Positions 490-15,621 of a DNA stretch of 16,989 bases are shown in pieces. The notes below the pieces were generated by a model. The model saw nothing but the letters and a program-made list of their open reading frames with translations. It searched no databases and was not told where the DNA came from. Where the stretch lies: the IMG/VR virus record IMGVR_UViG_2778261502_000004, positions 1-16,989 of that record; one strand, given 5' to 3'. The position numbers and the translations under genes were made by a program. This stretch comes from a virus. Its lineage: Duplodnaviria > Heunggongvirae > Uroviricota > Caudoviricetes. How positions within the stretch are numbered: the first letter of the stretch is position 1; every line of letters starts with the position of its first letter.

Positions 490-543
490 GGTAGATCTCC
501 CTGACAAAAGCAGGGATGATGCCATTTGCTCGTTATTTCTACA

Positions 544-569
544 TTTTCATAAACGTTGGTTTGGGAGAA
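544..569. repeat. Candidate invertase crossover site (pix/gix/cix-like), left boundary of invertible segment
   Basis: TTTTCATAAACGTTGGTTTGGGAGAA with core AAACG-TT-GGTTT; inverted copy of the site at 2114..2139; the central dinucleotide is complementary between the two sites as inversion requires. Confidence 0.6.
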
Positions 570-914: not shown

Positions 915-916
915 AA

Positions 917-1357: not shown

Positions 1358-1754
1358 TATTCTCTGGGTCGGTTGTCACATCAGTCGCCTTAATATCATT
1401 CTTATACGTCAGCCACGCCGACAGTTTTGCTCTGTTGGCGTCGCTAATTTCTCCCAGCATCAACTCTGTACGCCAGTCGAGCATCACATCATCAGCATGA
1501 GACAGTAGTTGCTGGCGTTTATTTTCTGCGACCTGAACTAACTCTTCTTTTGTTGGAGGGGGAATATCAGCCCAGGCTGGCATTCCATTCACGCTGGAGA
1601 GAATTTTCCCCTGCGGCCATACACCACCGTATTCCGCTCTTACGGTATCGCTGATTGCAACGGCATCTGATAAATCCCAGCCAGCATCGATATATTCCTG
1701 CATTAGGGACTCGGGAAAAAATGACAGGTTTGCGGGAGACCATAAAAATTCCAT
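1329..1754 (-). CDS. Tail fibre assembly protein (Tfa/U-like), partner of the currently expressed fibre
   Basis: MEFLWSPANLSFFPE...GMPAWADIPPPTKEE...NWPVPPEV; lies immediately downstream of the fibre gene on the same strand. Confidence 0.85.
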   Translation of the reverse strand: MEFLWSPANLSFFPESLMQEYIDAGWDLSDAVAISDTVRAEYGGVWPQGKILSSVNGMPAWADIPPPTKEELVQVAENKRQQLLSHADDVMLDWRTELMLGEISDANRAKLSAWLTYKNDIKATDVTTDPENINWPVPPEV

Positions 1755-1756
1755 AA

Positions 1757-2416
1757 TTAACGCCCTATTGAATACACCATTACATCCAGTGAGCTGGATG
1801 TATATGTACTGGTTGCAAGAAATGAAGAAAGATTGTTATTGGATGCACTGACAAATGGACTCGCCGCCACGTTAATGGTGCGGCTTTCAGTGTTGGCCCA
1901 TGAGCCAATAACCGTTGATGTGAACGGGATTAAATAGTTTGCTGATACTGTAGCCCCTGTAGTACCAGATGCTGCAGGAATACTTACTCTTTTCCACTGC
2001 AACATCCAGTTCTGAGGAAACCGTACATATCCTCCATTCAGTTCATTCCTGAATTCAAAACTACCCATATCCGGGATCTGATTTCCCCCTGTGCCCACAT
2101 CCCGTTTTGCCGCCTCTCCCAAACCAAGGTTTTCGAGAGCCGTTTTCACCGTGCCATCCGCTTTGATATCGCCAAACGGATTTTTGCGGCTTAACAGCAG
2201 CGCACGAAGCGCGGTAAGCAGCTGGTCGTGCCGCGCCTTCTCGAGACTGGCACCGGATGCCTCCACAACGCTGCAAAGCTCCTCCTGCAACATGTCAAAG
2301 TAGTCATCATCCAGATCGGTGGCAGGCGTGCCAGTCTGGGGGTTACCACGGGTAAAACCGTTTTTACCCGCGCCGAACTTATCCTTCTGCGCGGTTTTCG
2401 TGTCTATACGATGCAT
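1757..2416 (-). CDS. Side tail fibre protein (Mu S / e14 Stf-like): conserved N-terminal part joined to a variable C-terminal receptor-binding part
   Basis: 219 aa; N-terminus [47 protein letters not shown] is the conserved tail-fibre N-terminus as I recall it; the crossover site lies inside the gene at the [12 protein letters not shown] codons. Confidence 0.85.
2114..2139. repeat. Candidate invertase crossover site (pix/gix/cix-like) inside the tail-fibre gene, right boundary of invertible segment
   Basis: CTCTCCCAAACCAAGGTTTTCGAGAG with palindromic core AAACC-AA-GGTTT; ~60 bp of inverted homology with 556..616 follows on the inside of the segment. Confidence 0.65.
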
Positions 2417-2419
2417 GGA

Positions 2420-3004
2420 TTACTCCGGATATTTAAAAATTACGTAGGTATGCGACGGGCAGAGTTTGTTAAGCACGCACTCGACAACGGTGTCCCCCCA
2501 GATACGCAGTGCGGAATCACAGGGATCGCCACATGTCATCCAGGTGGTGTTGGTGGCGGCTGGCATGTTGATCTGCCAGTAATACCGCCATTCAGGCGCG
2601 TTCACAGCGTCAGTACAGGCCGATGAGCAGGTGAACGTGCTTTTGTCGTATCGCGTGATGGTGGCATCTGGTCTGCCCAGGGCAGCAAGCTGTGCAAGAT
2701 AAAAATCCTCGTTGATGCCGCCCGCCAGGTTAACCTTCGCATCCAGCCGTTGCTGACGCTGGCGAAGGGTCTGTGTCCCTGCGGGAATACATTCATCCGG
2801 CAGACCGCACAGACGCTCCCAGCGGTTTATCAGTTCAGTGGTGGTGCGCGGATCCAGCTCCCGCATCAGGGCATCCGCACGCTGATGAACGCGGGTTAAT
2901 GACGGTGCCGCACCGGCAATCGCCGGATCGCTGGCTGACCACGCCGGACCGGGGGGCAACAGTGCCGACAACAGACGGATGTAATCATCGTTTGTCACGT
3001 CCAT
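2420..3004 (-). CDS. Tail/baseplate protein of the YmfQ / Mu gp48 type (DUF2313-like)
   Basis: 194 aa [24 protein letters not shown]...[13 protein letters not shown]; sits directly upstream of the tail-fibre gene as ymfQ does in e14; recognised from memory, not aligned. Confidence 0.75.
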
Positions 3005-3140
3005 GAAATCGTCCCCAGTACCGCCAGTTCATTTTTTGCAATGGAGATATTGTCTGCCGGTGCAAGCAACTGATGGCTGTATTCCCCGTTCGCACCGGAA
3101 ATCGCCTCACTGATACGCGATACCTTCAGTTCTCCCTGCG
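2995..3140 (-). pseudogene. C-terminal remnant of the gene that normally precedes ymfQ (baseplate J-like by synteny)
   Basis: Open frame ...[46 protein letters not shown], stop overlapping the ymfQ-like start (ATGGACGTGA); no start codon; about 48 codons only. Confidence 0.3.
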
Positions 3141-3269
3141 GATATAGGGTTTGTCGCGGTTCGGGTATTCATGTGTTTCCACACGGCGACCGGTTCCCGC
3201 ACTTTCTTCTTCAACCTTAAACGGCACGCCGCGAAATGACGCGTCCTGAAGCCTGTCTTTCCACGTCAT
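3126..3269 (-). pseudogene. N-terminal remnant of a Mu N-like DNA-circularisation / tail protein, cut off after 47 codons
   Basis: MTWKDRLQDASFRGVPFKVEEESAGTGRRVETHEYPNRDKPYIRREN* with GGAG RBS; the SFRGVPF...GRR..HEYP.RD.PY motif matches the N-terminus of this family as I recall it; expected position after the tape measure in Mu-like order. Confidence 0.5.
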
Positions 3270-3285
3270 ATATACTCCGAAAATT

Positions 3286-3310
3286 AAAAAGCCACCTATT
3301 AGAAGGTGGC
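3286..3310 (-). terminator. Rho-independent terminator downstream of the 176-aa gene
   Basis: GCCACCT-TATTAGA-AGGTGGC hairpin; on the minus strand it is followed by TTTTT. Confidence 0.7.
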
Positions 3311-3330
3311 CTTGTAATGAATTTTATTAA

Positions 3331-3861
3331 TTAGCGAGTCAGAAACAACGAATCTTTATACTTTTGCTGTTGTTCATTTAAATACTTAGCTGTTTCATCG
3401 CTGGCAAATGGAAATATTACCGTATTTTTAGGCATGGTAATTTCTTTTTTGTCCAGCGTCAGAGTAAACATAGGAACATACTGAGCAGAGTAACGCACCG
3501 CAGAAACGAGCTCTAGTTTAGACTCTTCAATAACACTTAAATTATCCAGGCTAACTTTCTCTTCATCTTTTTTCTTTGACGCATTTAAAGTTTTTATTAC
3601 TTTATTTAATTTCTCCTGAAAATCCTCCTTAAAGTTTTCAGGATTGCCGTCGACAACAAGAATCTGTTCACCCTGATTATCTGGAAAAATAATCTTTGCA
3701 CTTATCAATTTATTTTCTTTATAAACATCACCAAGTTTTATGGCTCCTCCAGATAACTGAATAATATGTTCATCTTTAAAGGAGATGTTGCCAGAGATTA
3801 TGAGAGATGAAAAAATAGCCGCTGCTCCAAGAATTACACTTGCTGTGATATAGCCTTTCAT
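3331..3861 (-). CDS. Hypothetical membrane-anchored or secreted protein encoded by an AT-rich insertion
   Basis: 176 aa; hydrophobic N-terminus MKGYITASVILGAAAIFSSLIISG then a Lys/Glu/Asp-rich domain; visibly AT-rich between GC-rich tail genes; own terminator. Confidence 0.6.
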   Translation of the reverse strand: MKGYITASVILGAAAIFSSLIISGNISFKDEHIIQLSGGAIKLGDVYKENKLISAKIIFPDNQGEQILVVDGNPENFKEDFQEKLNKVIKTLNASKKKDEEKVSLDNLSVIEESKLELVSAVRYSAQYVPMFTLTLDKKEITMPKNTVIFPFASDETAKYLNEQQQKYKDSLFLTR

Positions 3862-3952
3862 TTTTCGCCTATTAACATTTTTCTAAATGTGCATTAATTC
3901 TATCACTCTATTTATGACTTACAACCAGCAATACATGTGAGGGGAATCCTGG

Positions 3953-5785
3953 CTACCAAAATCGGGTATAGCCAACATCGTGATTTATATCAATGCCACT
4001 GGAGCGTGTTTCCGTAACCCGCATACCTGGTGGCATATTTATAAATGATACCTTGATCTCACCATCAACTTTTGGCGCGGTAGCTTTATTAATCATGAAG
4101 GGATTCGAGCCTGTGGCATCGGAGGCGTTGTTTGCCTGAGCCGGATCCACCGCCGGATAAGGAGTGTATCCCCGTGCCGGTATTCCCGTCCCATAAGCAT
4201 CATAAGCACCCGCGCCCCACTGCGCCGAGTTAATGGTATCGACCGTGTCACCGGAACTGCCGGTAAACCATTCAATAATCGGCTTCAGCTTATCCCACAT
4301 ATCCTGAAACCACTTAACAACCGGTCCCCAGTTATTGATCACCATCCCCAGCGGCGACCAGGCAAAAACCTTCTTCAGAAGTTCCCGGCCAGCCTCAAAA
4401 TAAGGACCAATGGTTTCCCAGAGCTTCTTGAAATAAGGTCCGACAACATCCCAGTTAGTGATAATTAATCCCGCAGCCAGAGCAATCGCCGTCGCAATCA
4501 TGCCAATCGGCGTCATCGACATGATCCTGCTGACAATACTGATGGCACTGCCCACGCCCATCAATCCCAGTTTCAGAATCGCAAGACCGGCAGCAAGCCC
4601 GACGACGCCGCGAATAACCCGGGGATTTTCATCCGCAAACTTCGTGAATTTTTCCCCCAACTCCCCCAGCCATTGCGTGATATTTTTAGCGTCACCAGAA
4701 AATGCGCCGCCAATAGCTGCAAGACCGTTAGTTGCGGTCCCCGTCATTGCCTCCCACAGGTTGGACAGCGTACCAAGCTGTGCCTGAACACGTTTATTCA
4801 GGCTGGCCTGTTTATTCATCTTCTGCTGGATCTGATCGTAACCATCCTTTCCTTTATCGATCAGAGCATTGACCACCTGAAGGGTTTCGGCATCATCACC
4901 AAATATTGCCTTAAGTACACCTGTTCGCTTAACGTCGGTCAGTTTTCGCAGCTTTGCCAGTTGCTTAAACATGTTATCAAGACCGCCAAAACTCCCTTTG
5001 CCGTCAGTAAAATCGAGCTGCACTCCGAGTTTCTGGCGGGCCATGACTTTATTGACGTCCCTGATTTTCTTAACGCTTAATCCGGACTGGATAACTTTTC
5101 GCAGGGCATTACCTGCCGACTCCCCGTTCATCCCCATCTGATCCATCATGACGCTGATAGGGGCAAGGCTCTGTGCAGCCTGAAGTCCGTCCTTATTCAC
5201 CATCTTCAGAACAGAACTGGTTTTAGTGAAGAAGGACAACATGTTGGTATCGTCAACGCCCAGATAAAACGCCTTCTGGATAGTGTCGAACAGTCCCATC
5301 ATGTCTTCTGACGCAGTTCCGGTAGCATCCTGCATCTTTGCAGCAAACTCAGCAGCCGCTTCCGGTGTTTTTTTCAGTTGTACCGCAAGATAAGCTGTCG
5401 CTTTACCCACACCACCAAGAATGTTTTCTGCCGGGATCCCCTGACGCACCAGCATCTGCATCATGTTCTGGAAATCAGCCGTTGTACCGGGTAGCTGGTT
5501 ACCCAGGCCAATAGCCAGTTTATTGATGTCCTGAAAGCTCTTTCCAACCTCGCCGTTCGCATCCATCATGGCGACTTTCAGCCCGGTGGCGGCGTTTTCC
5601 TGATCGGCATAAGATTTCAGGGAAAGCGTCAGACCCGCTGCCAGTCCGCCACCAAGCGCCAGCCCACCCTGTGACGCTTCTTCCGCCTGGCGTTTAAATC
5701 CCCGGATTTTCTTTTGCATTTTCGACAGCGCGGGAGAAAGCCTGTCGACACCGGTGATCAACGCCTTAAGCTCAAATTCAGCCAT
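3953..5785 (-). CDS. Phage tail tape measure protein
   Basis: 610 aa, Ala/Gly/Leu-rich with internal hydrophobic stretches; follows the frameshifted chaperone pair, the conserved tail-gene position. Confidence 0.85.
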   Translation of the reverse strand: MAEFELKALITGVDRLSPALSKMQKKIRGFKRQAEEASQGGLALGGGLAAGLTLSLKSYADQENAATGLKVAMMDANGEVGKSFQDINKLAIGLGNQLPGTTADFQNMMQMLVRQGIPAENILGGVGKATAYLAVQLKKTPEAAAEFAAKMQDATGTASEDMMGLFDTIQKAFYLGVDDTNMLSFFTKTSSVLKMVNKDGLQAAQSLAPISVMMDQMGMNGESAGNALRKVIQSGLSVKKIRDVNKVMARQKLGVQLDFTDGKGSFGGLDNMFKQLAKLRKLTDVKRTGVLKAIFGDDAETLQVVNALIDKGKDGYDQIQQKMNKQASLNKRVQAQLGTLSNLWEAMTGTATNGLAAIGGAFSGDAKNITQWLGELGEKFTKFADENPRVIRGVVGLAAGLAILKLGLMGVGSAISIVSRIMSMTPIGMIATAIALAAGLIITNWDVVGPYFKKLWETIGPYFEAGRELLKKVFAWSPLGMVINNWGPVVKWFQDMWDKLKPIIEWFTGSSGDTVDTINSAQWGAGAYDAYGTGIPARGYTPYPAVDPAQANNASDATGSNPFMINKATAPKVDGEIKVSFINMPPGMRVTETRSSGIDINHDVGYTRFW

Positions 5786-5960
5786 GTGTGCGTTTCTCCT
5801 GCTCTATCCTGTTTGCCTGACTGACCAGTAAGGGAATTTCACTGATCGGCATATTCAGCAATTCGAAAGGATTAATGCGCCAGTAGCTGGCGCAGTCAAA
5901 GAAGCGATCAGTGAGGTATTCAGCCGTCAGGCCTGGAGGAAAAAACCAGCCACAAGCCAC
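5778..5960 (-). CDS. -1 frameshift extension of the tail assembly chaperone (G/GT-type fusion product)
   Basis: ORF in the -1 frame overlapping the chaperone 3' end and the tape-measure start; entered through the slippery heptamer at 5939..5945. Confidence 0.6.
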   Translation of the reverse strand: MACGWFFPPGLTAEYLTDRFFDCASYWRINPFELLNMPISEIPLLVSQANRIEQEKRTHG

Positions 5961-6196
5961 GCCGCTGCATTCAGGTCTGCCGGAGACATCTGGTCGACAG
6001 AGTTTTGCGGCACTTTCGCCAGCCGCACAATGTATTTCGACACCACATGCGCCAGAAGTCTGACGGACTCATCCTGATTCATCTGGTAGGGATACCCCAG
6101 CTCGCGGACATCTTTCCCGGTGGGCTCATCAAACTCCAGTACGGAGAGTGTCTCGCCATGAGCGGTAATCGGTTTCTTTAACTCAAGCTCTTTCAT
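5927..6196 (-). CDS. Tail assembly chaperone (Mu gp41 / lambda G-like)
   Basis: 89 aa between tube and tape measure; ends in the slippery site. Confidence 0.65.
   Translation of the reverse strand: MKELELKKPITAHGETLSVLEFDEPTGKDVRELGYPYQMNQDESVRLLAHVVSKYIVRLAKVPQNSVDQMSPADLNAAAWLVAGFFLQA
5939..5945 (-). other. Programmed -1 ribosomal frameshift slippery heptamer T_TTT_TTC
   Basis: Minus-strand GCT GGT TTT TTC CTC sits 4 codons before the chaperone stop; the -1 frame continues FFPPGLTAEYL... to 5778. Confidence 0.6.
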
Positions 6197-6552
6197 TACT
6201 GGTAATCCCCTTCTTCACCGTGGAACTCAAGATCGACCGTGCCTTCTTCGGCATTATGGTTCGCTTCGCCGTGCAGCCAGGCAGACGACAGTACATAGAC
6301 CTGACCGTTCGCCAGCTCGGCAGTGATGGTCATCTCATCAGACGAGGTGATTTTGCTCACCGGAAAATTCTTCGGCACCTTGAAGGTCCCTTTGACATAG
6401 GGCGCACGGTGAGTTTCCTTGCGGTCCACTGAACCGTCCAGGCCGATGATGTCATCATTGACCGTCCTGTTCATGGGCACCTCAATGCCGCCGGTCAGCG
6501 ATAGCTGCTGACCGTCAATTTTGAAATAACAGGTTCCCCCGATACGGGCCAT
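6196..6552 (-). CDS. Phage tail tube protein (Mu M-like)
   Basis: 118 aa MARIGGTCYFKIDGQQLSLTGG...; TAATG overlap with the sheath stop; sheath-tube-chaperone-tape measure order. Confidence 0.7.
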   Translation of the reverse strand: MARIGGTCYFKIDGQQLSLTGGIEVPMNRTVNDDIIGLDGSVDRKETHRAPYVKGTFKVPKNFPVSKITSSDEMTITAELANGQVYVLSSAWLHGEANHNAEEGTVDLEFHGEEGDYQ

Positions 6553-7457
6553 TATGCAGACTCCTCTGAATACTGAAGACGGAACTGGTTAACCAAGGCA
6601 AAGACACGCAACTGGTTAACATAGTCAGGCGGGAACAGCGTGTTCAGGCGGTTCGGATCGCTGGCATCACGCTCCACAACCAGGTACTGCTTAAACAGTT
6701 CGTAGTTTTCCACGATCCCCGCACGCTCAAGCTGACGGTAGGTTGCCAGCAGTTCCCCTTTGATTACCGCCGGGGTGACAATCGCCTGACCGGGACCAAA
6801 GCGGGTACCGTCGCTGGCAAGCTTGTGACGCCCGTACTTACTGGTAATGACGGATTTCAGTTTGCGCAGTACATACGCACTGGTATGCAGCGTCTCGCTG
6901 TCGAGGTAGCTGTTATCCGCAACCCCGTAAGCATTTTTCCTGTACGTGGTGACATCACGCTGAATGCGCAGCCCCCCGCTTTCGACATACGCCGTTGCCA
7001 CGCCATGAGACAGCAGGGTCTGCTGCTCGGTCATCGTGAACCGTTTCCCCTTCGGCGCAGGCAGCATACCCACCAGCTCACCGGTCTGCGTGGGACGTGC
7101 CGGATCGTTGCGGATAAACACCGCTGCGCGGGCGGTACGGCTTGCCGCCAGCTCGTCGGCAGGCGTCTGGGTCTCTTTTTCGTACCCCGCCAGGGTGATG
7201 TGCTGCTGGTTAAACTGGTCACCTGCGTTCACCAGTTCTGACAGTGTGCCGGTCTTTGCCGTATACACATGACCATACAGCTGACGCGCATAGCTCCAGC
7301 GACCGCTGGTATCGTTCATCTCGGTCACTGTCCCACTTCGAACCGTAGCCGCGCTGATGACGGGATTGTCCTGGTTTGTATTGCTTCCAGCCTTCGCTTT
7401 TGTGGCTTTCGCAGTAGCCTGACGGGTCTGTGGTTGTAGAGCGGCAGCCGCGAACAC
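6552..7457 (-). CDS. Contractile tail sheath protein, 5'-truncated; the upstream part of this ORF is probably out-of-frame read-through from an HNH gene remnant
   Basis: 301-aa ORF with GTG start and no RBS; C-terminal two-thirds sheath-like by synteny and by motifs I recall (RKNAYGVADNSYLD, GQAIVTP, VERDASDPNRLNTLFPPDYVNQ); first ~40 residues are low-complexity Ala/Thr/Lys; sheaths are normally over 370 aa. Confidence 0.6.
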   Translation of the reverse strand: MFAAAALQPQTRQATAKATKAKAGSNTNQDNPVISAATVRSGTVTEMNDTSGRWSYARQLYGHVYTAKTGTLSELVNAGDQFNQQHITLAGYEKETQTPADELAASRTARAAVFIRNDPARPTQTGELVGMLPAPKGKRFTMTEQQTLLSHGVATAYVESGGLRIQRDVTTYRKNAYGVADNSYLDSETLHTSAYVLRKLKSVITSKYGRHKLASDGTRFGPGQAIVTPAVIKGELLATYRQLERAGIVENYELFKQYLVVERDASDPNRLNTLFPPDYVNQLRVFALVNQFRLQYSEESA

Positions 7458-7485
7458 GGCAGGCTTTTGGGGTTCGAGGGGGCAT
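7219..7485 (-). pseudogene. N-terminal fragment of a phage HNH endonuclease fused out of frame to the sheath gene
   Basis: MPPRTPKACRVRGCRSTTTDPSGYCESHKSEGWKQ...RGYGSKWD shows the C-x3-GC...YC-x2-H...RGY..W pattern of the HNH N-terminus; AGGA 8 nt upstream of ATG 7485; similarity is lost after about residue 52. Confidence 0.4.
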
Positions 7486-7543
7486 TATTAATGTCCTAAA
7501 TAGTTTCCTCTCTAAAAACTAATTTGTGTTAGGGAAATCATTA

Positions 7544-7587
7544 AATGAAGTGAACCTTTTAGTACCCACTGTAAAATTCACTTCATT
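7544..7587 (-). terminator. Long inverted repeat just downstream of the 169-aa gene (possible terminator or protein-binding site)
   Basis: AATGAAGTGAA ... TTCACTTCATT, 11-bp perfect arms with a 22-nt loop; no clean U-tract. Confidence 0.35.
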
Positions 7588-7592
7588 AATAT

Positions 7593-8102
7593 TTAACCAA
7601 ATACAATGAATGTTCCAAAAGATGCTAATGATATATTTATCAGAGAATCCATACGAGCCTTAATTTCTGGCGTATCCTCGACCTCAGTACGCCATTGATT
7701 GACTGCCTCAATCATATCTCGACAAAACACATCTATTTGCAACTGAAGTTTGCCATTTAAGTGATTTAAATGCACTTGGCAATTTGGCCTAGGTGGTGGT
7801 GTAAAATTAAACTGCATCATTCTTTTCCTGTTCTCTGGATCCTGTCCAGCATGTAAACAAGAACAACGATACAGCCAAAAATCATCCGCATAAAATCGAC
7901 ACTGTTCATGTGTACCGGATGTATATTTATTTTCAAGATAACGAGAAACCCAATCTTTATACCATTTCCCTGTTTCACCCTTACCTATTTTGGGACGTTC
8001 AACGCTCCTGCAAATATCAGGCATAGCAAGAGCCATAAACAATGCCGCTAACCAATTCTCACTTTCAATTGAAGATTCAATTGATTTTATAAACCTTTCC
8101 AT
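7593..8102 (-). CDS. Hypothetical Cys/His-rich protein encoded by an AT-rich insertion between the lysis cassette and the HNH remnant
   Basis: 169 aa MERFIKSIESSIESENWLAALFMALAMPDICRS...YRCSCLHAG...; visibly AT-rich; no family recognised. Confidence 0.6.
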   Translation of the reverse strand: MERFIKSIESSIESENWLAALFMALAMPDICRSVERPKIGKGETGKWYKDWVSRYLENKYTSGTHEQCRFYADDFWLYRCSCLHAGQDPENRKRMMQFNFTPPPRPNCQVHLNHLNGKLQLQIDVFCRDMIEAVNQWRTEVEDTPEIKARMDSLINISLASFGTFIVFG

Positions 8103-8168
8103 AACTCACCTTTATATTATTTGATGATTATATTTATAGCACAGTTACAATCATTTTCCGGAAAATAT

Positions 8169-8420
8169 TTATTCATTTTGATATCCTATTTTTAGAATAT
8201 CCTTTTTATCTCTATTGCATTGCGCTAATGCAGATAACAAACTCGCATTCAGTTCCAGGCTAGCACCATATGTCAGTGGACTAGGTACAACTGGAATCGG
8301 TGTTTCAGAAGTCAGGCTGGCTGGCAGTGGTACCGCCGGAGTGTTCACGTAAACTGTCCGCGTACTTCCGCAACCGGTCAGCAGCGGCAGCAGGCACAGG
8401 ACGTGAAGCACAATCATCAT
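8169..8420 (-). CDS. Outer-membrane spanin lipoprotein (Rz1-like), overlapping the 3' part of Rz in another frame
   Basis: MMIVLHVLCLLPLLTGCGSTR... with lipobox LLTGC followed by a Pro-rich region; start inside Rz. Confidence 0.65.
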   Translation of the reverse strand: MMIVLHVLCLLPLLTGCGSTRTVYVNTPAVPLPASLTSETPIPVVPSPLTYGASLELNASLLSALAQCNRDKKDILKIGYQNE

Positions 8421-8697
8421 CCGCAACAGCCACTTTGATATCTTCCTGGGTTCTCTGTGACTCCAGTGCAATCTGCTGTTTTGCATGCTGGTTAGCCTCT
8501 ATAACTGTATTGATGATTTGCAGTGATTGCAGAACGTTACGGGTAATGGCAGTTGCTGATTCAGCATTTCGTATAGCCTCATCAACACGCTCCTTTTCGT
8601 GCAGATATTTGCTGTAGTAATGCCCGGCAGACCAGATGAAGGAACCAATGACGGTAACAAAGAAGGCAACAATAACCAGCTTATATCTCAGCTTCAT
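8305..8697 (-). CDS. Inner-membrane spanin (Rz-like)
   Basis: 130 aa with N-terminal transmembrane segment (LVIVAFFVTVIGSFIW) and a coiled-coil-like remainder; start overlaps the endolysin stop. Confidence 0.75.
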   Translation of the reverse strand: MKLRYKLVIVAFFVTVIGSFIWSAGHYYSKYLHEKERVDEAIRNAESATAITRNVLQSLQIINTVIEANQHAKQQIALESQRTQEDIKVAVADDDCASRPVPAAAADRLRKYADSLREHSGGTTASQPDF

Positions 8698-9157
8698 TTA
8701 CTACCCCACCAGCCTCTTTAAACCGGGAAATCAGGTCGCCAATTTTATGTTCATACTGACCGTAACCTGCACCAGGTAACGACGCCCAGATATTGCTGCA
8801 ACGATCGATAGCCTGACGGATATCACCGCGATCAATCATCGGTAAAGCGCCACGCTCTTTAATCTGCTGCAATGCCACAGCGTCCTGGCTTTTCGGAGAG
8901 AAGTCTTTCAGGCCAAGCTGCTTACGATAGGAATCCCACCAACGGGAAAGAAGCTGGTAGCGCCCGGCTGCTGTTGATTTGAGTTTTGGGTTTAGCGTGA
9001 CAAGTTTGCGAGGGTGATCGGAGTAATCAGTAAATAGCTCTCCGCCTACAATGACGTCATAACCATGATTTCTGGTTTTCTGCCGTCCGTTATCCGTTCC
9101 TTCTGACCATGCCACCATATCGAGGAAAGCTTTACGCTGAGGATTAAGATTTTGCAT
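8681..9157 (-). CDS. R: Endolysin, lambda R-type lytic transglycosylase
   Basis: 158 aa MQNLNPQRKAFLDMVAWSEGTDNGRQKTRNHGYDVIVGGELFTDYSDHPRKL..., near-identical to lambda R as I recall it; AGGGGTGA RBS. Confidence 0.93.
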   Translation of the reverse strand: MQNLNPQRKAFLDMVAWSEGTDNGRQKTRNHGYDVIVGGELFTDYSDHPRKLVTLNPKLKSTAAGRYQLLSRWWDSYRKQLGLKDFSPKSQDAVALQQIKERGALPMIDRGDIRQAIDRCSNIWASLPGAGYGQYEHKIGDLISRFKEAGGVVNEAEI

Positions 9158-9311
9158 TTTTCACCCCTGTCAGTCGTTCCCAGAAGTACGTCAGTGCAAC
9201 CGAACCCATTGCACCACTAATCCCCGCTGTCGCGAGAATCATGTAAATACTGAATCCACTTTCGATGCTGATCAGGCCACCAATAACACCGGTGAATCCT
9301 GATATCCGGTC
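9147..9311 (-). pseudogene. Start-less hydrophobic C-terminal remnant, probably of the holin gene
   Basis: Open frame ...SGFTGVIGGLISIESGFSIYMILATAGISGAMGSVALTYFWERLTGVKNAKS* ending in the ATG of R, the position of a holin 3' end; bounded upstream by an in-frame stop, no N-terminal part. Confidence 0.45.
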
Positions 9312-9486
9312 TTAAGTCAGATTTCGTAATTGCACCTGACGTGCATTGCTCAAGTTTTTTAGCCAGCACAAAACTGGCTTTTTTATAGCCATTGAAAACC
9401 AGCCGTAAGTAGCCAGGTGTTGAGCCAACTTTTCCGGCCAACTCGCCCTGCTGTTCTTTGGTTAAAGAGTCCCAATACGCTTTCAT
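9217..9486 (-). CDS. Cro-like HTH regulator (YdaS/Cro family) whose 3' end reads out of frame through the holin remnant
   Basis: Start ATG 9486 with GGAGGT RBS (MKAYWDSLTKEQQGELAGKVGSTPGYLRLVFNGYKKASFVLAKKLEQCTSGAITKSDLRPDI); the last 27 residues (RIHRCYWWPDQHRKW...) are Trp/Arg/His-rich, as expected for the wrong frame of a hydrophobic gene; divergent from cI. Confidence 0.6.
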   Translation of the reverse strand: MKAYWDSLTKEQQGELAGKVGSTPGYLRLVFNGYKKASFVLAKKLEQCTSGAITKSDLRPDIRIHRCYWWPDQHRKWIQYLHDSRDSGD

Positions 9487-9576
9487 ACAATATGTACCTC
9501 CGGTGTACATATTACATGATTAAAATGAACCTTCAAGATACTTGTACCTTAACGGTACAAGGGTTTTAATTTCGTT
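9487..9576. promoter_or_regulatory. Divergent immunity control region with two 19-bp palindromic operators and candidate pR and pRM promoters
   Basis: Operators ATGTACC-N5-TGTACAT (9492..9510) and TTGTACC-N5-GGTACAA (9542..9560); minus-strand promoter TTGAAG (9531..9536) / 16 bp / TAATAT (9509..9514); plus-strand TTTAAT at 9565..9570 lies just before the cI ATG, suggesting a leaderless cI message. Confidence 0.55.
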
Positions 9577-10251
9577 ATGAAAACAATCCATGACATCCGG
9601 CGGTCTAACGCCAGAAAACTGAGAGATGGTGTTGGCGGGAATTCTTCCTTTGCCACTATGATTGATCGCGAGCCAACCCAGACCAGCAGGTTTATGGGAG
9701 ATGGTGCTACTAAAAATATCGGTGACAGCATGGCACGACACATCGAAAAATGTTTCGACCTACCTGTCGGATGGCTCGATCAAGAACACCAGACAACGAA
9801 CATCACAAAAAAACCTGATGTTTCAATCACTAATAAACAAATCACATTAGTCCCTGTCATATCATGGGTACAGGCCGGAGCATGGAAAGAAGTTGGATAT
9901 TCTGAGGTTGATTTGAGCACAGCAGAAACGTATCCCTGCCCTGTACCCTGTGGGGAAATGACTTATATCTTGCGGGTGATAGGTGATTCAATGATTGATG
10001 AGTACCGCCCGGGAGACATGATTTTTGTCGATCCTGAAGTACCTGCCTGCCACGGTGACGACGTTATTGCATTGATGCACGATACAGGTGAAACCACCTT
10101 CAAAAGGTTAATAGAAGATGGGACACAGCGTTATCTCAAAGCGTTAAACCCAAACTGGCCTGAGCCTTACATTAAGATCAACGGTAATTGCTCTATAATT
10201 GGTACAGTGATTTTCTCAGGAAAACCAAGAAGATACAAAATCAAAGCCTAA
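9577..10251 (+). CDS. CI-type prophage repressor: phage-CI HTH N-domain plus LexA/S24-type autocleaving C-domain
   Basis: 224 aa; N-terminal ...GDSMARHIEKCFDLPVGWLDQ; C-terminal domain with Ser in VIGDSM and Lys in TFKRL, the S24 catalytic dyad context. Confidence 0.9.
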   Translation: MKTIHDIRRSNARKLRDGVGGNSSFATMIDREPTQTSRFMGDGATKNIGDSMARHIEKCFDLPVGWLDQEHQTTNITKKPDVSITNKQITLVPVISWVQAGAWKEVGYSEVDLSTAETYPCPVPCGEMTYILRVIGDSMIDEYRPGDMIFVDPEVPACHGDDVIALMHDTGETTFKRLIEDGTQRYLKALNPNWPEPYIKINGNCSIIGTVIFSGKPRRYKIKA

Positions 10252-10263
10252 TCAATGTTTATG

Positions 10264-10288
10264 AACCTGCTTCGGCAGGTTTTTTTAT
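10264..10288 (+). terminator. Rho-independent terminator after cI
   Basis: AACCTGC-TTCG-GCAGGTT stem-loop followed by TTTTTT. Confidence 0.8.
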
Positions 10289-10290
10289 AC

Positions 10291-10323
10291 TTGACAATGT
10301 ACCTTTGAGATACATAATGTACC
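10291..10323 (+). promoter_or_regulatory. pL-like early-left promoter with overlapping operator
   Basis: TTGACA (10291..10296) / 16 bp / CATAAT (10313..10318); operator ATGTACC-N5-GATACAT at 10297..10315 with the same 7-5-7 layout as the cro–cI operators; extra half-site ATGTACC at 10317..10323. Confidence 0.65.
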
Positions 10324-10409
10324 CAAGAGAAACAACGAACAGGCAGGACGCCCACGAAGTAGCCGCCTGGGGCATATGAAGTCCAGGATGATTCGTTAGC
10401 AACAAAAAA

Positions 10410-10440
10410 GCGCCCTACAGGACGCTTAGCTCTTTAACAA
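10410..10440 (+). promoter_or_regulatory. Candidate antitermination site: short hairpin followed by an rrn-type boxA
   Basis: GCTCTTTAACAA (10429..10440) matches the core of the rrn boxA consensus TGCTCTTTAACAA; preceded by hairpin GCGCC-CTACA-GGaCGC (10410..10425); located in the 5' leader downstream of the pL-like promoter. Confidence 0.5.
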
Positions 10441-10485
10441 TCTGGTCCCCATCAACAAGTAACTGATAACTTGAGGAGATGTGAA

Positions 10486-10692
10486 ATGCACAAAACAGAA
10501 CCCAAAATCGTCGCGCCTGGCTACACAGATGAGGAAATTTATGAGTGGATGACAAAGAAGCTGGCAGCTATAAACCAGCTTCGTGAAGTGCTGTCTTATC
10601 GACAGGAAACAATAGACTCCTTAAAAAAACTGGATCAGGAAATCACGGTTTTATCACAGGATGTTACTTTAGATATTGTGCAGACAAATTAG
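10486..10692 (+). CDS. Small hypothetical protein, first gene of the pL-like transcript
   Basis: 68 aa MHKTEPKIVAPGYTDEEIYEWMTKKLAAINQLREVLSYRQETIDSLKKLDQEITVL... ; GAGGAG RBS 7 nt upstream; not Arg-rich, so not an N-type antiterminator. Confidence 0.55.
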   Translation: MHKTEPKIVAPGYTDEEIYEWMTKKLAAINQLREVLSYRQETIDSLKKLDQEITVLSQDVTLDIVQTN

Positions 10693-11098
10693 GATCCCAT
10701 TCATTTTCGTCAAAATCATCAAAGTGATGAATTTGTGATCTCCAGTCTCGATAATCTAAAAATTTCTGGGCGGTTACGCTTATTTTATCAAGTGTGAGTT
10801 CATCCTGAATTGAAAGAAGAAGTTCATCAAATTTCATCTCATTAATCTGTTTTGGCATCCAGTGATGCTTCATCAGAATAAGGTGAACCAGAGCCTTTTT
10901 CCCATTCAACTGATTATAGGGAGTGCCGAATTTCTTCCGGTGCTCATGTAAGACAAGGTCCAAAAGAGTAAGTAATGTTGCCCTTGATTCAACTTTGCTT
11001 ATTTCGACTGATGACACTACCCCACTGATTTCAATGCCCCGATACTTTCCAACATTTTCACAGTGGGATTTGTACAGCGTATAGATATTACCGGACAT
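10664..11098 (-). CDS. Hypothetical protein on the opposite strand, AT-rich, 3' end overlapping the 68-aa gene by 29 bp
   Basis: 144 aa MSGNIYTLYKSHCENVGKYRGIEISGVVSSVEISKVESRATLLTLLDLVLHEHRKKFGTPYNQ...; AAGGA-like RBS; soluble; no family recognised. Confidence 0.55.
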   Translation of the reverse strand: MSGNIYTLYKSHCENVGKYRGIEISGVVSSVEISKVESRATLLTLLDLVLHEHRKKFGTPYNQLNGKKALVHLILMKHHWMPKQINEMKFDELLLSIQDELTLDKISVTAQKFLDYRDWRSQIHHFDDFDENEWDPNLSAQYLK

Positions 11099-11113
11099 TT
11101 CTTTTCCTTTTGC

Positions 11114-11162
11114 GTTGTTGGGGATAACCAGATTAACCGAATCCTTGTTGTTGGGGAATAAC
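11114..11162. repeat. Two direct repeats just upstream of the 144-aa gene start
   Basis: GTTGTTGGGGATAACC (11114..11129) and GTTGTTGGGGAATAAC (11147..11162), 17 bp apart. Confidence 0.5.
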
Positions 11163-11382
11163 TAGGTCCACCTCGCCTGATGTGGCTAAAAGCAGGCACA
11201 TAACAGCTAAGTATTTTCAACCAGAGAGAATCCTTAGCGTTGTGGTGAATGCGGCTCAGCGCACGCGGGTTAAGGTTGAGGCTGACAGTCGACCTTCTGT
11301 GGATACCCACCCGCCTGGTGTGCAACCTTCGCCAGGCACCGGGAGGCACCCGGCACCACAACTTTATGCTGTGTGTAGTCTT

Positions 11383-11429
11383 GGCGGTACCAGCTTGTAC
11401 CCTTGCTTCCGGCTGGTACCGTCCTTTTT
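11383..11429 (+). terminator. Strong rho-independent terminator inside the early-left leader (tL1-like)
   Basis: 10–12 bp GC-rich stem (CGGTACCAGC / GCTGGTACCG), 17-nt loop, then TTTTT. Confidence 0.7.
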
Positions 11430-11431
11430 AC

Positions 11432-11516
11432 AAAACAGAGAAGAGCATCACCGGACGACGGGCTCATAACCCAATCCATCCGGGCGGCAGTCACCGCAGG
11501 TGTTCTTCTCTGTTTT
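11432..11516. repeat. 16-bp inverted repeat enclosing a GC-rich ~53-nt segment, right after the terminator
   Basis: AAAACAGAGAAGAGCA (11432..11447) versus TGTTCTTCTCTGTTTT (11501..11516), one mismatch. Confidence 0.5.
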
Positions 11517-11566
11517 GTGGAGAAACTAACCGACCTTGCAGGGTCGATATGATGAGGAGCAGCAAA

Positions 11567-11929
11567 ATGGCTAGCGAACGCAGTACTGATGTGCAGGCAT
11601 TTATCGGGGAGCTGGACGGCGGCGTATTTGAAACCAAAATCGGCGCAGTTCTCAGTGAAGTCGCTTCCGGTGTGATGAACACGAAAACCAAAGGTAAGGT
11701 CTCGCTCAACCTGGAAATCGAACCGTTTGATGAGAACCGAGTGAAAATCAAACACAAACTCTCATATGTTCGCCCGACTAACCGCGGGAAAATTTCCGAA
11801 GAAGACACCACCGAAACGCCGATGTATGTCAATCGCGGTGGTCGCCTGACTATTCTGCAGGAAGACCAGGGACAGTTACTGACTCTTGCCGGTGAACCTG
11901 ACGGAAAACTCCGCGCAGCAGGTCGTTAA
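11567..11929 (+). CDS. yfdP: YfdP-like early-left prophage protein
   Basis: Likely start ATG 11567 with GAGGAG RBS, 120 aa (the ORF track extends it upstream to 11249 without support); size and position match yfdP of the CPS-53 yfdP–yfdT cluster as I recall it. Confidence 0.55.
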   Translation: MASERSTDVQAFIGELDGGVFETKIGAVLSEVASGVMNTKTKGKVSLNLEIEPFDENRVKIKHKLSYVRPTNRGKISEEDTTETPMYVNRGGRLTILQEDQGQLLTLAGEPDGKLRAAGR

Positions 11930-11994
11930 TATCGTTTTTAATTAACTGATTATTTATCTCATCACTGAATATCTTTATATAGTGAGGACTTATT

Positions 11995-12819
11995 ATGTCT
12001 CAGAACTTAGACGCAACCGCAATTAATCAAATCCATGCCCTTATTTCTGCTCAGGGTGTTAATGAAATTATCAGTAAGATTGGTGCCGATGCTGTGGCAT
12101 TGCCTGAGAATTTCCGCATTCATGATCTGGAAAAATTTAATTTAAATCGCTTCCGTTTCCGTGGTGCGCTTTCCACTGCCAGCATCGATGACTTTACCCG
12201 TTATTCTAAAGATCTTGCAGATGAAGGCACCCGCTGCTTTATCGATGCTGATAATATGCGTGCCGTCAGTGTGCTTAACCTGGGTACTATTGATGAACCA
12301 GGTCACGCAGATAACACCGCCACACTCAAACTGAAAAAGACAGCACCGTTCTCTGCTCTGTTGTCTGTTAACGGCGAGCGTAACTCCCAGAAGTCACTGG
12401 CAGAATGGATTGAAGACTGGGCCGACTATCTTGTGGGCTTTGATGCTAATGGTGACGCTATTCAGGCAACAAAAGCGGCTGCGGCTGTCCGTAAAATCAC
12501 GATTGAAGCAAACCAGACCGCTGATTTTGAAGATAATGACTTCAGCGGCAAACGCTCCCTGATGGAGTCTGTCGAAGCGAAGACCAAAGACATTATGCCA
12601 GTGGCATTTGAATTTAAATGCGTTCCGTTTGAAGGTCTGAAAGAACGTCCGTTTAAATTACGCCTCAGTATTATCACTGGCGATCGTCCTGTACTGGTTC
12701 TGCGCATTATTCAGCTGGAGGCGGTGCAGGAAGAAATGGCTAACGAATTTCGTGATCTGCTTGTTGAGAAATTCAAGGACAGCAAAGTAGAAACCTTTAT
12801 TGGTACTTTCACCGCCTGA
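11995..12819 (+). CDS. yfdQ: YfdQ-like protein (DUF2303 family)
   Basis: 274 aa; GAGGA RBS; size and order as in CPS-53; not aligned. Confidence 0.65.
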
Positions 12820-12831
12820 TTTCATTACTGC

Positions 12832-12853
12832 AAATGCCCCTGCGGGGGCATTT
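12832..12853 (+). terminator. Perfect hairpin between the yfdQ-like and yfdR-like genes (weak terminator or attenuator)
   Basis: AATGCCCC-TGCG-GGGGCATT followed by T-ATGG; short U-tract. Confidence 0.35.
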
Positions 12854-12946
12854 ATGGAAACGTAATTTACTCAATAATCGCCGGATGGTGAGGGATTCTT
12901 TTTACCAGAATTCAGCGCGGTGCAGCGCATATACGTGGAGAACAAA

Positions 12947-13483
12947 ATGTCATTTATTAAAACTTTTTCCGGGAAGCATTTTTATTATGACAGGATAAAT
13001 AAAGACGACATCGATATTAACGATATCGCGGTTTCCCTTTCAAATATCTGTCGCTTTGCCGGTCATCTTTCGCACTTCTACAGCGTCGCCCAACATGCGG
13101 TTCTTTGCAGCCAGCTGGTGCCGCAGGAATTTGCTTTTGAAGCGTTAATGCATGATGCAACAGAAGCGTATTGCCAGGACATTCCCGCACCACTGAAACG
13201 CCTTCTTCCTGACTATAAACAAATGGAAGAAAAAATAGACGCCGTAATCCGTGAGAAATACGGGTTACCTCCAGTTATGAGTACGCCCGTGAAATATGCC
13301 GATCTCATCATGCTGGCAACCGAACGCCGCGATCTCGGGCTTGATGATGGCTCTTTCTGGCCTGTACTGGAAGGTATCCCGGCAACAGAGATGTTCAACG
13401 TGATTCCACTGGCACCGGGCCATGCCTACGGGATGTTTATGGAACGCTTTAACGAGTTATCGGAGTTACGCAAATGCGCATGA
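12947..13483 (+). CDS. yfdR: HD-domain phosphohydrolase, YfdR/YfbR-type 5'-deoxynucleotidase
   Basis: 178 aa from ATG 12947 (GGAG RBS; the track's GTG at 12920 is less likely); H..H in SVAQHAVLC and HD in LMHDATEAY. Confidence 0.8.
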   Translation: MSFIKTFSGKHFYYDRINKDDIDINDIAVSLSNICRFAGHLSHFYSVAQHAVLCSQLVPQEFAFEALMHDATEAYCQDIPAPLKRLLPDYKQMEEKIDAVIREKYGLPPVMSTPVKYADLIMLATERRDLGLDDGSFWPVLEGIPATEMFNVIPLAPGHAYGMFMERFNELSELRKCA

Positions 13484-13836
13484 ATGTTTTCGAAATGGAA
13501 GGGTTTCTTCGTGGGAGATGTGTACCGCGAGATCTGAAAGTAAATGAAACAGATGCTGAATACCTGGTGCGTAAATTCGATGCGCTTGAAGCTAAATATG
13601 CAGCACAGGAAAACAAAGTAATACCAGTGTCAACTGAACTGCCACCAGCAAATGAAAGTGTTTTGTTATTCGATGCTAACGGAGAAGGCTGGCTAATTGG
13701 CTGGCGTTCTCTCTGGTACACCTGGGGACAAAAAGAAACCGGAGAATGGCAGTGGACATTTCAGGTCGGGGACCTTGAAAACGTCAATATCACTCACTGG
13801 GCAGTAATGCCAAAAGCACCGGAGGCTGGAGCATAA
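13474..13836 (+). CDS. yfdS: DUF551-type prophage protein (YfdS-like)
   Basis: 120 aa; C-terminal ...LLFDANGEGWLIGW...ITHWAVMPKAPE pattern typical of DUF551; start overlaps the yfdR-like stop. Confidence 0.7.
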   Translation: MRMNVFEMEGFLRGRCVPRDLKVNETDAEYLVRKFDALEAKYAAQENKVIPVSTELPPANESVLLFDANGEGWLIGWRSLWYTWGQKETGEWQWTFQVGDLENVNITHWAVMPKAPEAGA

Positions 13837-14141
13837 TGACCACTTTTACCGACAAAGAACTGATTAAAGAAATTAAAGAGCGTATCAGCAGCCTTGACGT
13901 GCGAGACGATATTGAGCGCCGTGCTTATGAAATCGCACTCCTATCTCTGGAAGTAGAACCAGATGAACGCGAAGCTTATGAATTATTCATGGAAAAGCGT
14001 TTCGGTGACTTAGTAGATCGTCGGAGAGCAAAAAACGGCGATAACGAATACATGGCATGGGATATGACTCTCGGTTGGATCGTCTGGCAGCAACGAGCTG
14101 GTATCCATTTTTCAACAATGTCACAGCAAGAGGTGAAATAA
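13836..14141 (+). CDS. yfdT: YfdT-like early-left prophage protein
   Basis: 101 aa; TAATG overlap with the preceding gene; size and position match yfdT as I recall it. Confidence 0.55.
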   Translation: MTTFTDKELIKEIKERISSLDVRDDIERRAYEIALLSLEVEPDEREAYELFMEKRFGDLVDRRRAKNGDNEYMAWDMTLGWIVWQQRAGIHFSTMSQQEVK

Positions 14142-14491
14142 TGGAGCCATACAGCCTCACACTCGATGAGGCCTGTCATTTTCTCAAGATATCCAGACCG
14201 ACTGCCATTAACTGGATACGCACAGGGCGTCTTCAGGCAACACGCAAAGATCCCACTAAGAATAAATCTCCTTACCTCACAACACGACAAGCCTGCATTG
14301 CGGCTCTTCAGTCTCCGCTGCATACTGTCCAGGTGAGCGCGGGTGATGGCATAACAGAGGAAAGAAAATGTCACTCTTCCGCAGAGGTGAAATATGGTAC
14401 GCCAGTTTCACATTGCCGAACGGTAAAAGATTTAAACAGTCTCTTGGAACAAAGGACAAAAGGCAGGCGACAGAACTCCATGACAAGCTAA
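14141..14491 (+). CDS. xis: Excisionase (P22 Xis-like)
   Basis: Start ATG 14141 (AGGTGA RBS; TAATG overlap with the previous gene), 116 aa [33 protein letters not shown]...; 3' end overlaps the integrase start by ~124 bp. Confidence 0.8.
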
Positions 14492-15531
14492 AGGCTGAAG
14501 CATGGCGGGTCAGCAAACTTGGTGAAATACCTGATATAACGTTCGAGGAAGCGTGTGTCAGGTGGCTTGAAGAGAAAGCACATAAAAAATCACTGGACGA
14601 TGACAAAAGCCGGATCGGATTCTGGCTTCAACATTTCGCAGGAATGCAACTAAGAGACATTACTGAATCAAAAATTTATTCAGCAATGCAGAAAATGACG
14701 AACCGGCGTCATGAGGAAAACTGGAAACTCAGGGCAGAAGCATGCAGAAAAAAAGGGAAACCTGTTCCAGAATACACGCCAAAACCAGCGTCCGTTGCAA
14801 CGAAGGCTACGCATCTTTCATTTATAAAGGCCCTACTAAGAGCCGCAGAGCGTGAATGGAAAATGCTGGATAAGGCACCAATTATTAAAGTGCCCCAACC
14901 AAAGAATAAACGGATCCGCTGGCTGGAGCCCCATGAAGCACAAAGGCTGATTGATGAATGTCCGGAGCCATTAAAGTCTGTTGTTGAATTTGCACTGGCA
15001 ACAGGCCTAAGACGCTCGAACATCATCAACCTTGAATGGCAACAAATAGATATGCAGCGCCGGGTGGCATGGATAAACCCGGAAGAGAGTAAATCAAACC
15101 GCGCAATTGGCGTTGCGCTGAATGATACTGCATGTCGCGTATTGAAAAAACAAATCGGGAATCATCACCGTTGGGTATTTGTGTACAAGGAAAGCTGTAC
15201 CAAACCAGACGGAACGAAAGCGCCAACAGTCAGGAAGATGCGGTATGACGCAAACACAGCCTGGAAAGCGGCGCTGAGACGGGCTGGTATTGATGATTTC
15301 AGATTTCACGACTTGAGACACACCTGGGCAAGTTGGCTGGTTCAAGCCGGAGTCCCGTTGTCAGTGTTACAGGAAATGGGAGGCTGGGAGTCTATCGAAA
15401 TGGTTCGTCGATATGCTCACCTTGCACCTAATCACCTTACCGAACACGCACGGCAAATAGACTCGATCCTAAACCCATCGGTCCCAAATTTGTCCCAGTC
15501 AAAAAATAAGGAAGGTACTAATGATGTGTAA
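14368..15531 (+). CDS. int: Tyrosine-recombinase integrase of the P22 / SfV family
   Basis: 387 aa [24 protein letters not shown]...; C-terminal [10 protein letters not shown]...VRRYAHL carries the catalytic His/Arg/Tyr context; ends 15 bp from the tRNA 3' end. Confidence 0.93.
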
Positions 15532-15545
15532 CTTATTGATTTAAA

Positions 15546-15621
15546 TGGTGCCGATAATAGGAGTCGAACCTACGACCTTCGCATTACGAATGCGCTGCTC
15601 TACCAACTGAGCTATATCGGC
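15546..15621 (-). tRNA. thrW: tRNA-Thr (anticodon CGU), the attachment tRNA
   Basis: Reverse complement reads GCCGATATAGCTCAGTTGGTAGAGCAGCGCATTCGTAATGCGAAGGTCGTAGGTTCGACTCCTATTATCGGCACCA, 76 nt with CCA end and anticodon loop CATTCGTAATG. Confidence 0.97.

Follow-up and report, generated by a model that had tools for sequence, protein, structure and literature searches.

What would a ribosomal-type boxA do in the early-left leader of a prophage in which no N gene is seen? The question was raised by a stretch of viral DNA of 16,989 nt (the window, analysed here at its full length), for which a sequence-only reading had offered three options: N was lost, read-through relies on host Nus factors alone, or a 68-aa protein encoded downstream is an unusual antiterminator. 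The second option appears to be the best fit among them. With a probability of about 0.6, boxA is regarded here as a functional, N-independent signal of the rrn spacer type, placed in a composite early-left RNA module of SfV/SfIV/e14-like prophages, and the phage probably borrows the anti-termination machinery of host rRNA operons and needs no N protein. The module is made up, in this order, of a hairpin, boxA, the 5' arm of a long-range helix, about 0.45-0.9 kb of antisense RNA, the 3' arm, a small hairpin, and an STnc100-like sRNA with its terminator. Its anatomy, its conservation at multiple loci, the covariation of the helix, the assignment of the helix to the plus strand and the matches to the rrn spacer and trailer were observed directly. 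Among these features, the minus-strand gene with its terminator, the long-range helix and the rrn spacer match had not figured in the earlier reading.

The prophage, its early-left promoter and boxA

The window is a defective prophage of the SfIV/SfV type integrated at thrW, with a tRNA-Thr (15549-15621) giving the only Rfam match at gathering thresholds. Positions 9301-15591 were 99.3% identical to Shigella phage SfIV and contained cro, cI, the early-left genes, xis and int. On the left side of cro the lysis and tail genes form a patchwork with deletions, from which the prophage was recognised as defective. When positions 1-9300 were compared with SfIV, lysis genes were found directly after cro, and beyond them incomplete genes for sheath, tube, tape measure and baseplate, as well as tail-fibre genes and a gene for a Pin-like invertase (1-525); in the same comparison no replication, Q or head genes were present in the window prophage.

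After the ymfK-like repressor gene (S24 peptidase, 9577-10251) come a terminator (10263-10282) and a predicted strong promoter on the plus strand, TTGACA-16-CATAAT (10291..10318), which agreed with the consensus at 11 of 12 positions and is overlapped by two ATGTACC operator half-sites. Nine copies of the half-site WTGTACC were counted against 2.9 expected, with clusters in the cI-cro intergenic region and at this promoter. SfV and Ayreon have kept this promoter, and their annotations name it as one. It is predicted to occupy a position like that of lambda pL, so boxA, about 104 nt downstream in the same orientation, would be that far into the predicted early-left transcript. Between them lies a structured 5' leader (10326..10407, plus strand) common to SfV, which has no boxA; hairpins were folded at about 10340-10369 and 10367-10386, and stem variants between loci were CTGG/CCAG, CCGG/CCGG and CCCA/TGGG. 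A further half-site, TTGTACC (11395-11401), was seen in the loop of the sRNA terminator described below, beside a GGTACC palindrome; it may be a coincidence or another repressor site.

The boxA (10429..10445, plus strand) consists of the core GCTCTTTAACAA followed by TCTGG, and matches the boxA of the rrn 16S-23S spacer with its 3' flank. The core (10429-10440) is present as a single copy in the window, where 0.13 matches per shuffled window would be expected with up to one mismatch. It was in agreement with the UGCUCUUUAACAA core at all 12 positions and fitted the gamma-proteobacterial consensus GYTCTTTAANA, which was derived experimentally (PMC5725501). The stretch conserved beyond the 12-mer, GCTCTTTAA[C/A]AATCTGGAT, was identical to the boxA of the rrnB 16S-23S spacer with its 3' flank at 18 of 19 nt. 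Judged by sequence, the 12-mer is a genuine rrn-type boxA and a chance match is excluded, which bears out the earlier observation of such an element in the early-left leader. It is a putative NusB/NusE site, which would recruit SuhB, NusA and NusG. A permissive Rfam scan gave no match at boxA; an STnc100 match was found elsewhere.

The absence of an N gene, remarked on before, held for the window and for complete SfIV alike. None of the early-left ORFs of the window matched an N family, and in the complete 39.8-kb SfIV genome neither a second boxA or nut site, nor a nutR-like copy, nor an N-like ORF or Arg-rich early protein was found, the only recognisable antiterminator being Q. No N-like gene or second boxA was found in the window, SfIV, SfV, Ayreon, e14 or the Qin dicB operon. 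A lambdoid nutL, with its N gene lost or with an unrecognised N such as the 68-aa product, would agree with the position of the site after a repressor-controlled early-left promoter, as nutL in lambda, and with the heavy deletion of the window prophage. But complete SfIV has just the one boxA, and no boxB-type hairpin was found in the 45 nt after boxA, the only adjacent hairpin being 5' of it. As for the 68-aa ORF (10486..10692, plus strand, phrog_1744), it is indeed the first ORF downstream, starting at 10486 and not at 10487 as the earlier reading had implied. Its product is YdfC-like and acidic, with 8 K+R against 12 D+E, only two Arg and a net negative charge, so the description of it as non-basic and unlike an Arg-rich N was correct; it is also missing from most cassettes that follow the same boxA, which tells against a role as antiterminator. 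Both the loss of N and an unrecognised N are therefore very improbable.

Variable cassettes around a conserved boxA

Next to boxA on its 5' side, where rrn operons have boxB, lies the hairpin AAGCGCCC-TACA-GGACGCTT (10408..10427). On the minus strand it folded at -11.5 kcal/mol as a perfect 8-bp stem including a G·U pair, followed by U6 (tail TTTTTTGT / UUUUUUGU), which is the form of an intrinsic terminator. On the plus strand it is weak, with about -7.5 kcal/mol, a C·A mismatch and a poor U-tail, UUAGCUCU. From the stronger minus-strand fold and the U6 tail, the hairpin was assigned primarily as a minus-strand terminator, and in the proposed mechanism it would mainly terminate the transcript of the cassette described next. 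The order of hairpin and then boxA, which the earlier reading had compared with rrn leaders, is that of rrnB, in its leader as in its 16S-23S spacer; the hairpin itself calls for a different interpretation. The A-tract with the same hairpin recurred as a terminator, in the same orientation, in unrelated phage contexts. In an AT-rich viral contig (L080) the terminator hairpin AAAGCGCCC-N4-GGACGCTT occurred five times, spaced about 1.4-1.7 kb apart, apparently as a repeated gene-end signal.

The cassette of the window contains the 68-aa ORF, which lies in the loop of the helix, and a 144-aa gene of the ECs1072 family (10664..11098, minus strand, phrog_5286), the two being convergent with an overlap of 29 nt. 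The 144-aa gene is a variable accessory gene: in other loci it was replaced by unrelated minus-strand genes, of which at least eight kinds were distinguished by N-terminal sequence, encoding 77-255 aa. Among about 20 cassettes found after the same boxA, the 68-aa gene was present only in the window type and as a diverged copy in locus L086. No function was assigned by Pfam, PHROGs or PADLOC to the 68-aa protein, the 144-aa protein or two common cassette proteins, and no convincing sigma-70 promoter for the minus-strand cassette gene was found by scan or by eye. The enclosed RNA, about 0.45-0.9 kb, is mostly untranslated and antisense to the variable accessory gene; in the window its part from 10950 to 11100 is C-rich relative to G.

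Two side observations concern these genes. The convergent YdfC-like/ECs1072-family pair recurred in diverged form in L086, and ymfJ/ymfI (L131, e14 of K-12) occupy the corresponding place in a similar arrangement, so that the two genes may form one cassette with linked functions. The interval from repressor to early-left genes is a hotspot of minus-strand genes (L005-L010, L018-L100, L298-L306), with families starting MTRDD... (apparently membrane proteins) or VIAELSAAM... (coiled-coil and zinc-ribbon) and others that are lipoprotein-like. None of these was recognised by Pfam or PADLOC, and they are candidates for exclusion or defence genes expressed in the lysogen.

In other loci a block of about 45 nt, ACAAAAAAGCGCCC-N4-GGACGCTT[A/C/T]GCTCTTTAACAATCTGG, was kept where repressor, leader and cassette gene all differed, and a minus-strand gene adjoined the block in every such locus. 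The constraint on boxA was assessed by three scans, anchored on the hairpin, on boxA with TCTGG, and on the 3' arm of the helix. The first gave 56 matches, with GYTCTTTAANA 0-2 nt past the stem in 31 distinct contexts; the hairpin loops varied freely, and within the 11-mer only position 10 (C/A), an N in the consensus, varied. Just two exceptions of the same family were seen. The second scan gave 82 distinct contexts, including the L135/L157 group, in which boxA is accompanied by a different, non-terminator hairpin (GCCGGA-N12-TCCGGC), and L163, in which it has no hairpin. The third scan was blind to boxA and found a strict boxA upstream in 84 of 89 family loci, at 436-903 nt from the 3' arm (median 580); four of the other five had a boxA with one mismatch and one had none. 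Six further matches to the 3'-arm pattern and matches in Electrothrix genomes were unrelated sequences and were set aside. Prophages with the same architecture were found in seven genera of Enterobacterales (Scandinavium, Edwardsiella, Symbiopectobacterium, Buttiauxella, Sodalis, Kosakonia and Citrobacter), represented by eight species.

Loci lacking boxA were also informative. SfV and the window have promoter and leader in common as far as about 10397, after which SfV carries a different, plus-strand cassette (orf33) and no boxA; Ayreon has yet another cassette and no boxA; for both, homology to the window resumes at about 11166. These loci without boxA are those without a minus-strand cassette. 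The e14 element of K-12, with a similar convergent gene pair, has no boxA either.

It is clear from the scans that boxA is kept beyond its neighbours in homologous loci, and the question is what keeps it. The match might be silent, the block of about 45 nt being retained as a minus-strand terminator or as a homology junction for cassette exchange. Such a view would account for the hairpin being the better terminator on the minus strand and being a terminator elsewhere without boxA, for the block always standing at the 3' end of a minus-strand gene, and for sequence identity stopping abruptly just past it. The presence of boxA is moreover confounded with that of a minus-strand cassette and terminator, as conservation of a recombination junction would have it. 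However, no known terminator constraint acts on 17-20 nt of 5' flank, and free variation of the loops stands beside an 11-mer that changes only where the consensus tolerates it. Since boxA is kept with a non-terminator hairpin or with none, it is not merely a part of the terminator, and the near-identity of its flank to the rrn spacer (18 of 19 nt) is joined by pairing with a covarying partner hundreds of nucleotides away. A silent boxA is accordingly considered unlikely.

Alternatively, boxA could be repressive, as at suhB and C. koseri CKO_00699, blocking translation of the 68-aa ORF, promoting Rho termination and damping early-left expression. The distance from the end of boxA to the ATG at 10486 is 46 nt, inside the 50-nt criterion (PMC5725501), and the geometry in L086 is comparable. 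But most family loci have no plus-strand ORF after boxA, so repression of the suhB kind cannot explain the family-wide conservation, and the paired 3' arm would be left unaccounted for. This explanation, too, has a low probability, and an N-independent signal of the rrn spacer type is preferred.

The long-range helix and the downstream sRNA

In the family, boxA runs straight into the 5' arm of a long-range helix of 18-25 bp, the 3' arm of which lies beyond the cassette: the sequence from boxA position 11, AATCTGGATATCCCCAACA, is complementary to GTTGTTGGGGATATCCAGATTAAC past the cassette gene. In the window the 5' arm AATCTGGTCCCCATCAACAA (10439..10458, plus strand) begins within boxA, and the 3' arm CGTTGTTGGGGATAACCAGATTAA (11113..11136, plus strand), about 670 nt away, is found just upstream of the Shine-Dalgarno of the minus-strand gene. 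The two arms pair at -25.0 kcal/mol with a 3-nt bulge, making this helix less regular than the family consensus, and it was present in both the minimum-energy and the centroid fold of positions 10400-11180. The corresponding duplex of rrnB, formed by the spacer flank and the 23S trailer GATTTTCAGCCTGATACAGATTAA, has an energy of -26.1 kcal/mol, and 10 of 11 nt of the window 3' arm were identical to the rrn 23S trailer.

For 42 distinct arm pairs the mean duplex energy was -28 kcal/mol, against -11 for shuffled left arms. Covariation was measured on an ungapped alignment of 37 distinct loci over 18 pairs, with 500 shuffles. In the true register 88.4% of cells were paired, compared with 23-50% when the arms were slid, and none of the 500 shuffles reached any of the helix measures. 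Double-sided changes, such as ATGAC/GTCAT and GTAACCCTC/GAGGGTTAC, were seen at 9 of the 18 pairs, a count that does not represent independent events because the loci are related. The cells that are not Watson-Crick comprised 39 G·U on the plus strand against 9 A·C, which are G·U on the minus strand, and the plus-strand duplex was the more stable in 31 of 42 loci. This wobble asymmetry and the greater stability of the plus-strand duplex indicate that the helix is selected in the RNA that carries boxA.

Directly past the 3' arm a conserved local hairpin, CCUUGUUGUU-GGGG-AAUAACUAGG (11143..11166, plus strand), contains the TTGTTGTTGGGGA motif once more. Its G·U positions would be A·C on the minus strand; it covaried in L157, L163 and L196, with plus-strand G·U pairs across loci.

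Could the repeats act elsewhere, with boxA adjacent by accident? By pairing its two UTRs they might stabilise the cassette mRNA, or cassettes might be exchanged at them as DNA or ssDNA sites, for it is precisely the variable gene that stands between the arms, the 3' arm is 5-20 nt upstream of the Shine-Dalgarno of the cassette gene, and the cassettes are highly diverse. Against this, the wobble pairs and stability favour the plus strand, cassettes were found in one orientation only and with no dedicated recombinase present, and both arms resemble the leader-trailer helix of rrn 23S; these points make the idea improbable. The repeats were also considered as invertase sites, given the Pin-like gene, or as transposon ends, and this was rejected on account of the single cassette orientation, the constant genomic context and the strand-specific wobble. 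The helix is thus best placed in the boxA-carrying RNA, as part of the rrn-type module.

Of the conserved early-left protein genes on the downstream side, yfdP (11567..11929, plus strand) comes first, and the interval of about 470 nt between it and the 144-aa gene was non-coding and highly structured (z = -5.07). A putative sRNA homologue of the STnc100 family (RF02076) lies there (11209..11432, plus strand); the covariance model was matched over its full length (1-206 of 206) with E 2e-8, at 43.4 bits and so just below the gathering score of 47. The STnc100 sRNAs are known from prophages and are relatives of PasD (bioRxiv 10.64898/2026.05.13.724894). The DicF model gave a weak match at 11370-11424. 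In annotations of this region, SfIV_34 (226 aa, in SfIV) and a 'frameshifted' pseudogene called by PGAP overlap 11209-11432, and both are probably mis-calls.

The terminator at 11383-11429 (12-13 bp stem, then U5), already noticed by the sequence-only reading, is real and proved to be the 3' end of this STnc100-like sRNA. What had been implied further, that boxA serves read-through of it, does not stand up. Antitermination complexes of the rrn type act against Rho, whereas intrinsic terminators are not overridden by them and indeed mark the ends of the rrn operons. A link between boxA and read-through at 11383-11429 is for this reason unlikely, and the complex would not be expected to override the sRNA's own terminator.

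A further hairpin with a near-perfect stem of about 25 bp (11425..11526, plus strand) starts in the U-tract of that terminator and ends about 40 nt before the ribosome-binding site of yfdP; it was invariant in SfV and Ayreon. It is plausibly a second target of RNase III, and may bear on the expression of yfdP-int past the terminator.

Proposed function and comparison with known systems

When the early-left promoter is derepressed, NusB/NusE would bind boxA, together with NusA, NusG and SuhB, by analogy with rrn operons and CRISPR arrays. The predicted transcript must cross 0.45-0.9 kb of antisense, largely untranslated RNA, and Rho resistance conferred by boxA is proposed for this reason: the Nus complex would keep RNA polymerase Rho-resistant across the stretch. 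The complex would also hold the 5' arm near the RNA exit channel, and the helix could form once the 3' arm emerges; the antisense RNA would then be looped out, and perhaps a cut by RNase III would release the downstream sRNA or mRNA. In the published work, boxA is necessary and sufficient for the rrn antitermination complex (PMC10250234) and boxA complexes protect long untranslated RNAs from Rho (PMC7665894). In the tethering model, one strand of the leader-trailer helix, the 5' one, is kept at the RNA exit channel through boxA for as long as the trailer has not emerged, and RNase III cleaves the helix afterwards (PMC10250234).

Lytic phages, too, have the same 17-mer, GCTCTTTAACAATCTGG, behind promoters, and in several of them a strong complementary partner lies downstream. 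In phage ACG-C91 (SP6/K1E-like; L172, 1683-1950), where the site is upstream of an ocr-like gene, the partner is at +236 and pairs at -36.8 kcal/mol; partners were also found at +548 in L137 and at +660 in L183 (-38.4 kcal/mol). In L158 boxA precedes a tRNA array and has a weaker partner at about +5 kb, and L156 and L195 are further lytic-phage loci of this group, in which the 17-mer boxA after early promoters leads into one arm of a helix, the strong partners standing 236-660 nt further on. The lytic-phage boxA with its partner arms suggests a more general device of boxA plus helix in phages. A broader proposal can be made only tentatively, namely that the 23S processing unit of rrn is mimicked, in portable form, in many phages, so that in prophages RNA antisense to an accessory gene expressed in the lysogen would be passed, looped out and excised by RNase III, and an STnc100-type sRNA delivered, and in lytic phages early genes or tRNA arrays would be bracketed; such a device would be widespread, N-independent, Nus-dependent and undescribed. 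If phage early leaders do contain a conserved boxA of the rrn spacer type fused to a covarying helix, phages would copy the transcription and processing signals of host rRNA wholesale and without N, it would be explained how an early operon escapes silencing by Rho while carrying an opposite-strand accessory gene at a hotspot of diverse uncharacterised genes, and production of prophage sRNA of the STnc100/PasD family would be tied to induction. The module would also be a compact and naturally varied system for the tethering by rrn complexes that is proposed in long-range helix formation.

To our knowledge, the Nus complexes demonstrated so far that depend on boxA are, lambdoid systems with N aside, those of rRNA operons, of leaders of the suhB type and of CRISPR arrays. 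No description of the phage boxA-helix element was found in the literature searched, nor could it be identified in the list of candidate boxA sites given by Baniulyte et al. 2017 (PMC5725501). The Nus-dependent mEpimmI phages were considered and set apart as a different group, with the N-like Gp17.

As at nutL of lambda, P22 and phage 21, where host Nus factors are likewise implicated, the early-left leader of the module carries its boxA beyond the repressor gene; unlike those phages, it has no boxB 3' of boxA, no N and no nutR. Its boxA is of full rrn consensus, compared with the weaker CGCTCTTA of lambda, and read-through of intrinsic terminators is not expected. HK022 put gives N-independent antitermination by a cis-acting RNA, in which two stem-loops act directly on RNA polymerase with no boxA or Nus. 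In both cases a lambdoid-type phage without N has an early leader RNA that itself modifies transcription, in the present case putatively. The Qin dicB operon is similar in having a YdfC-family gene and an sRNA in a repressor-controlled operon of early-left type. DicF is made by processing, including by RNase III. The Qin operon differs in having no consensus boxA and in encoding DicF, where the sRNA of the window is STnc100-like.

As in the suhB and CKO_00699 5'-UTRs (PMC5725501), a consensus boxA stands less than 50 nt from a start codon, in the window and L086 only; those elements repress translation and promote Rho termination, whereas most members of the phage family have no adjacent ORF. 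CRISPR arrays (2020, PMC7665894) resemble the module in having a promoter-proximal consensus boxA before a long untranslated RNA, with no N and with protection from Rho proposed. A leader-trailer helix is not described for CRISPR leaders, and the RNA that would be protected in the phage is an antisense stretch in a phage operon.

The closest likeness is to the 16S-23S spacer of E. coli rrn, in which a hairpin and boxA are followed immediately by the 5' strand of a long-range helix; the helix energies are similar to those of the rrn 23S leader-trailer, and in both cases a small structured RNA comes next, with an intrinsic terminator. Unlike in rrn, what lies inside the phage helix is no stable rRNA but about 0.45-0.9 kb of RNA that is antisense to an accessory gene for a protein; the promoter is a phage promoter under repressor control, and the hairpin before boxA is at the same time a terminator on the opposite strand. 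Antitermination by boxA and Nus factors is thus already known; its putative N-independent use in a phage early-left leader would be new, as would the fusion of boxA to an rrn-like leader-trailer helix around an antisense cassette and the predicted coupling to an STnc100-type sRNA.
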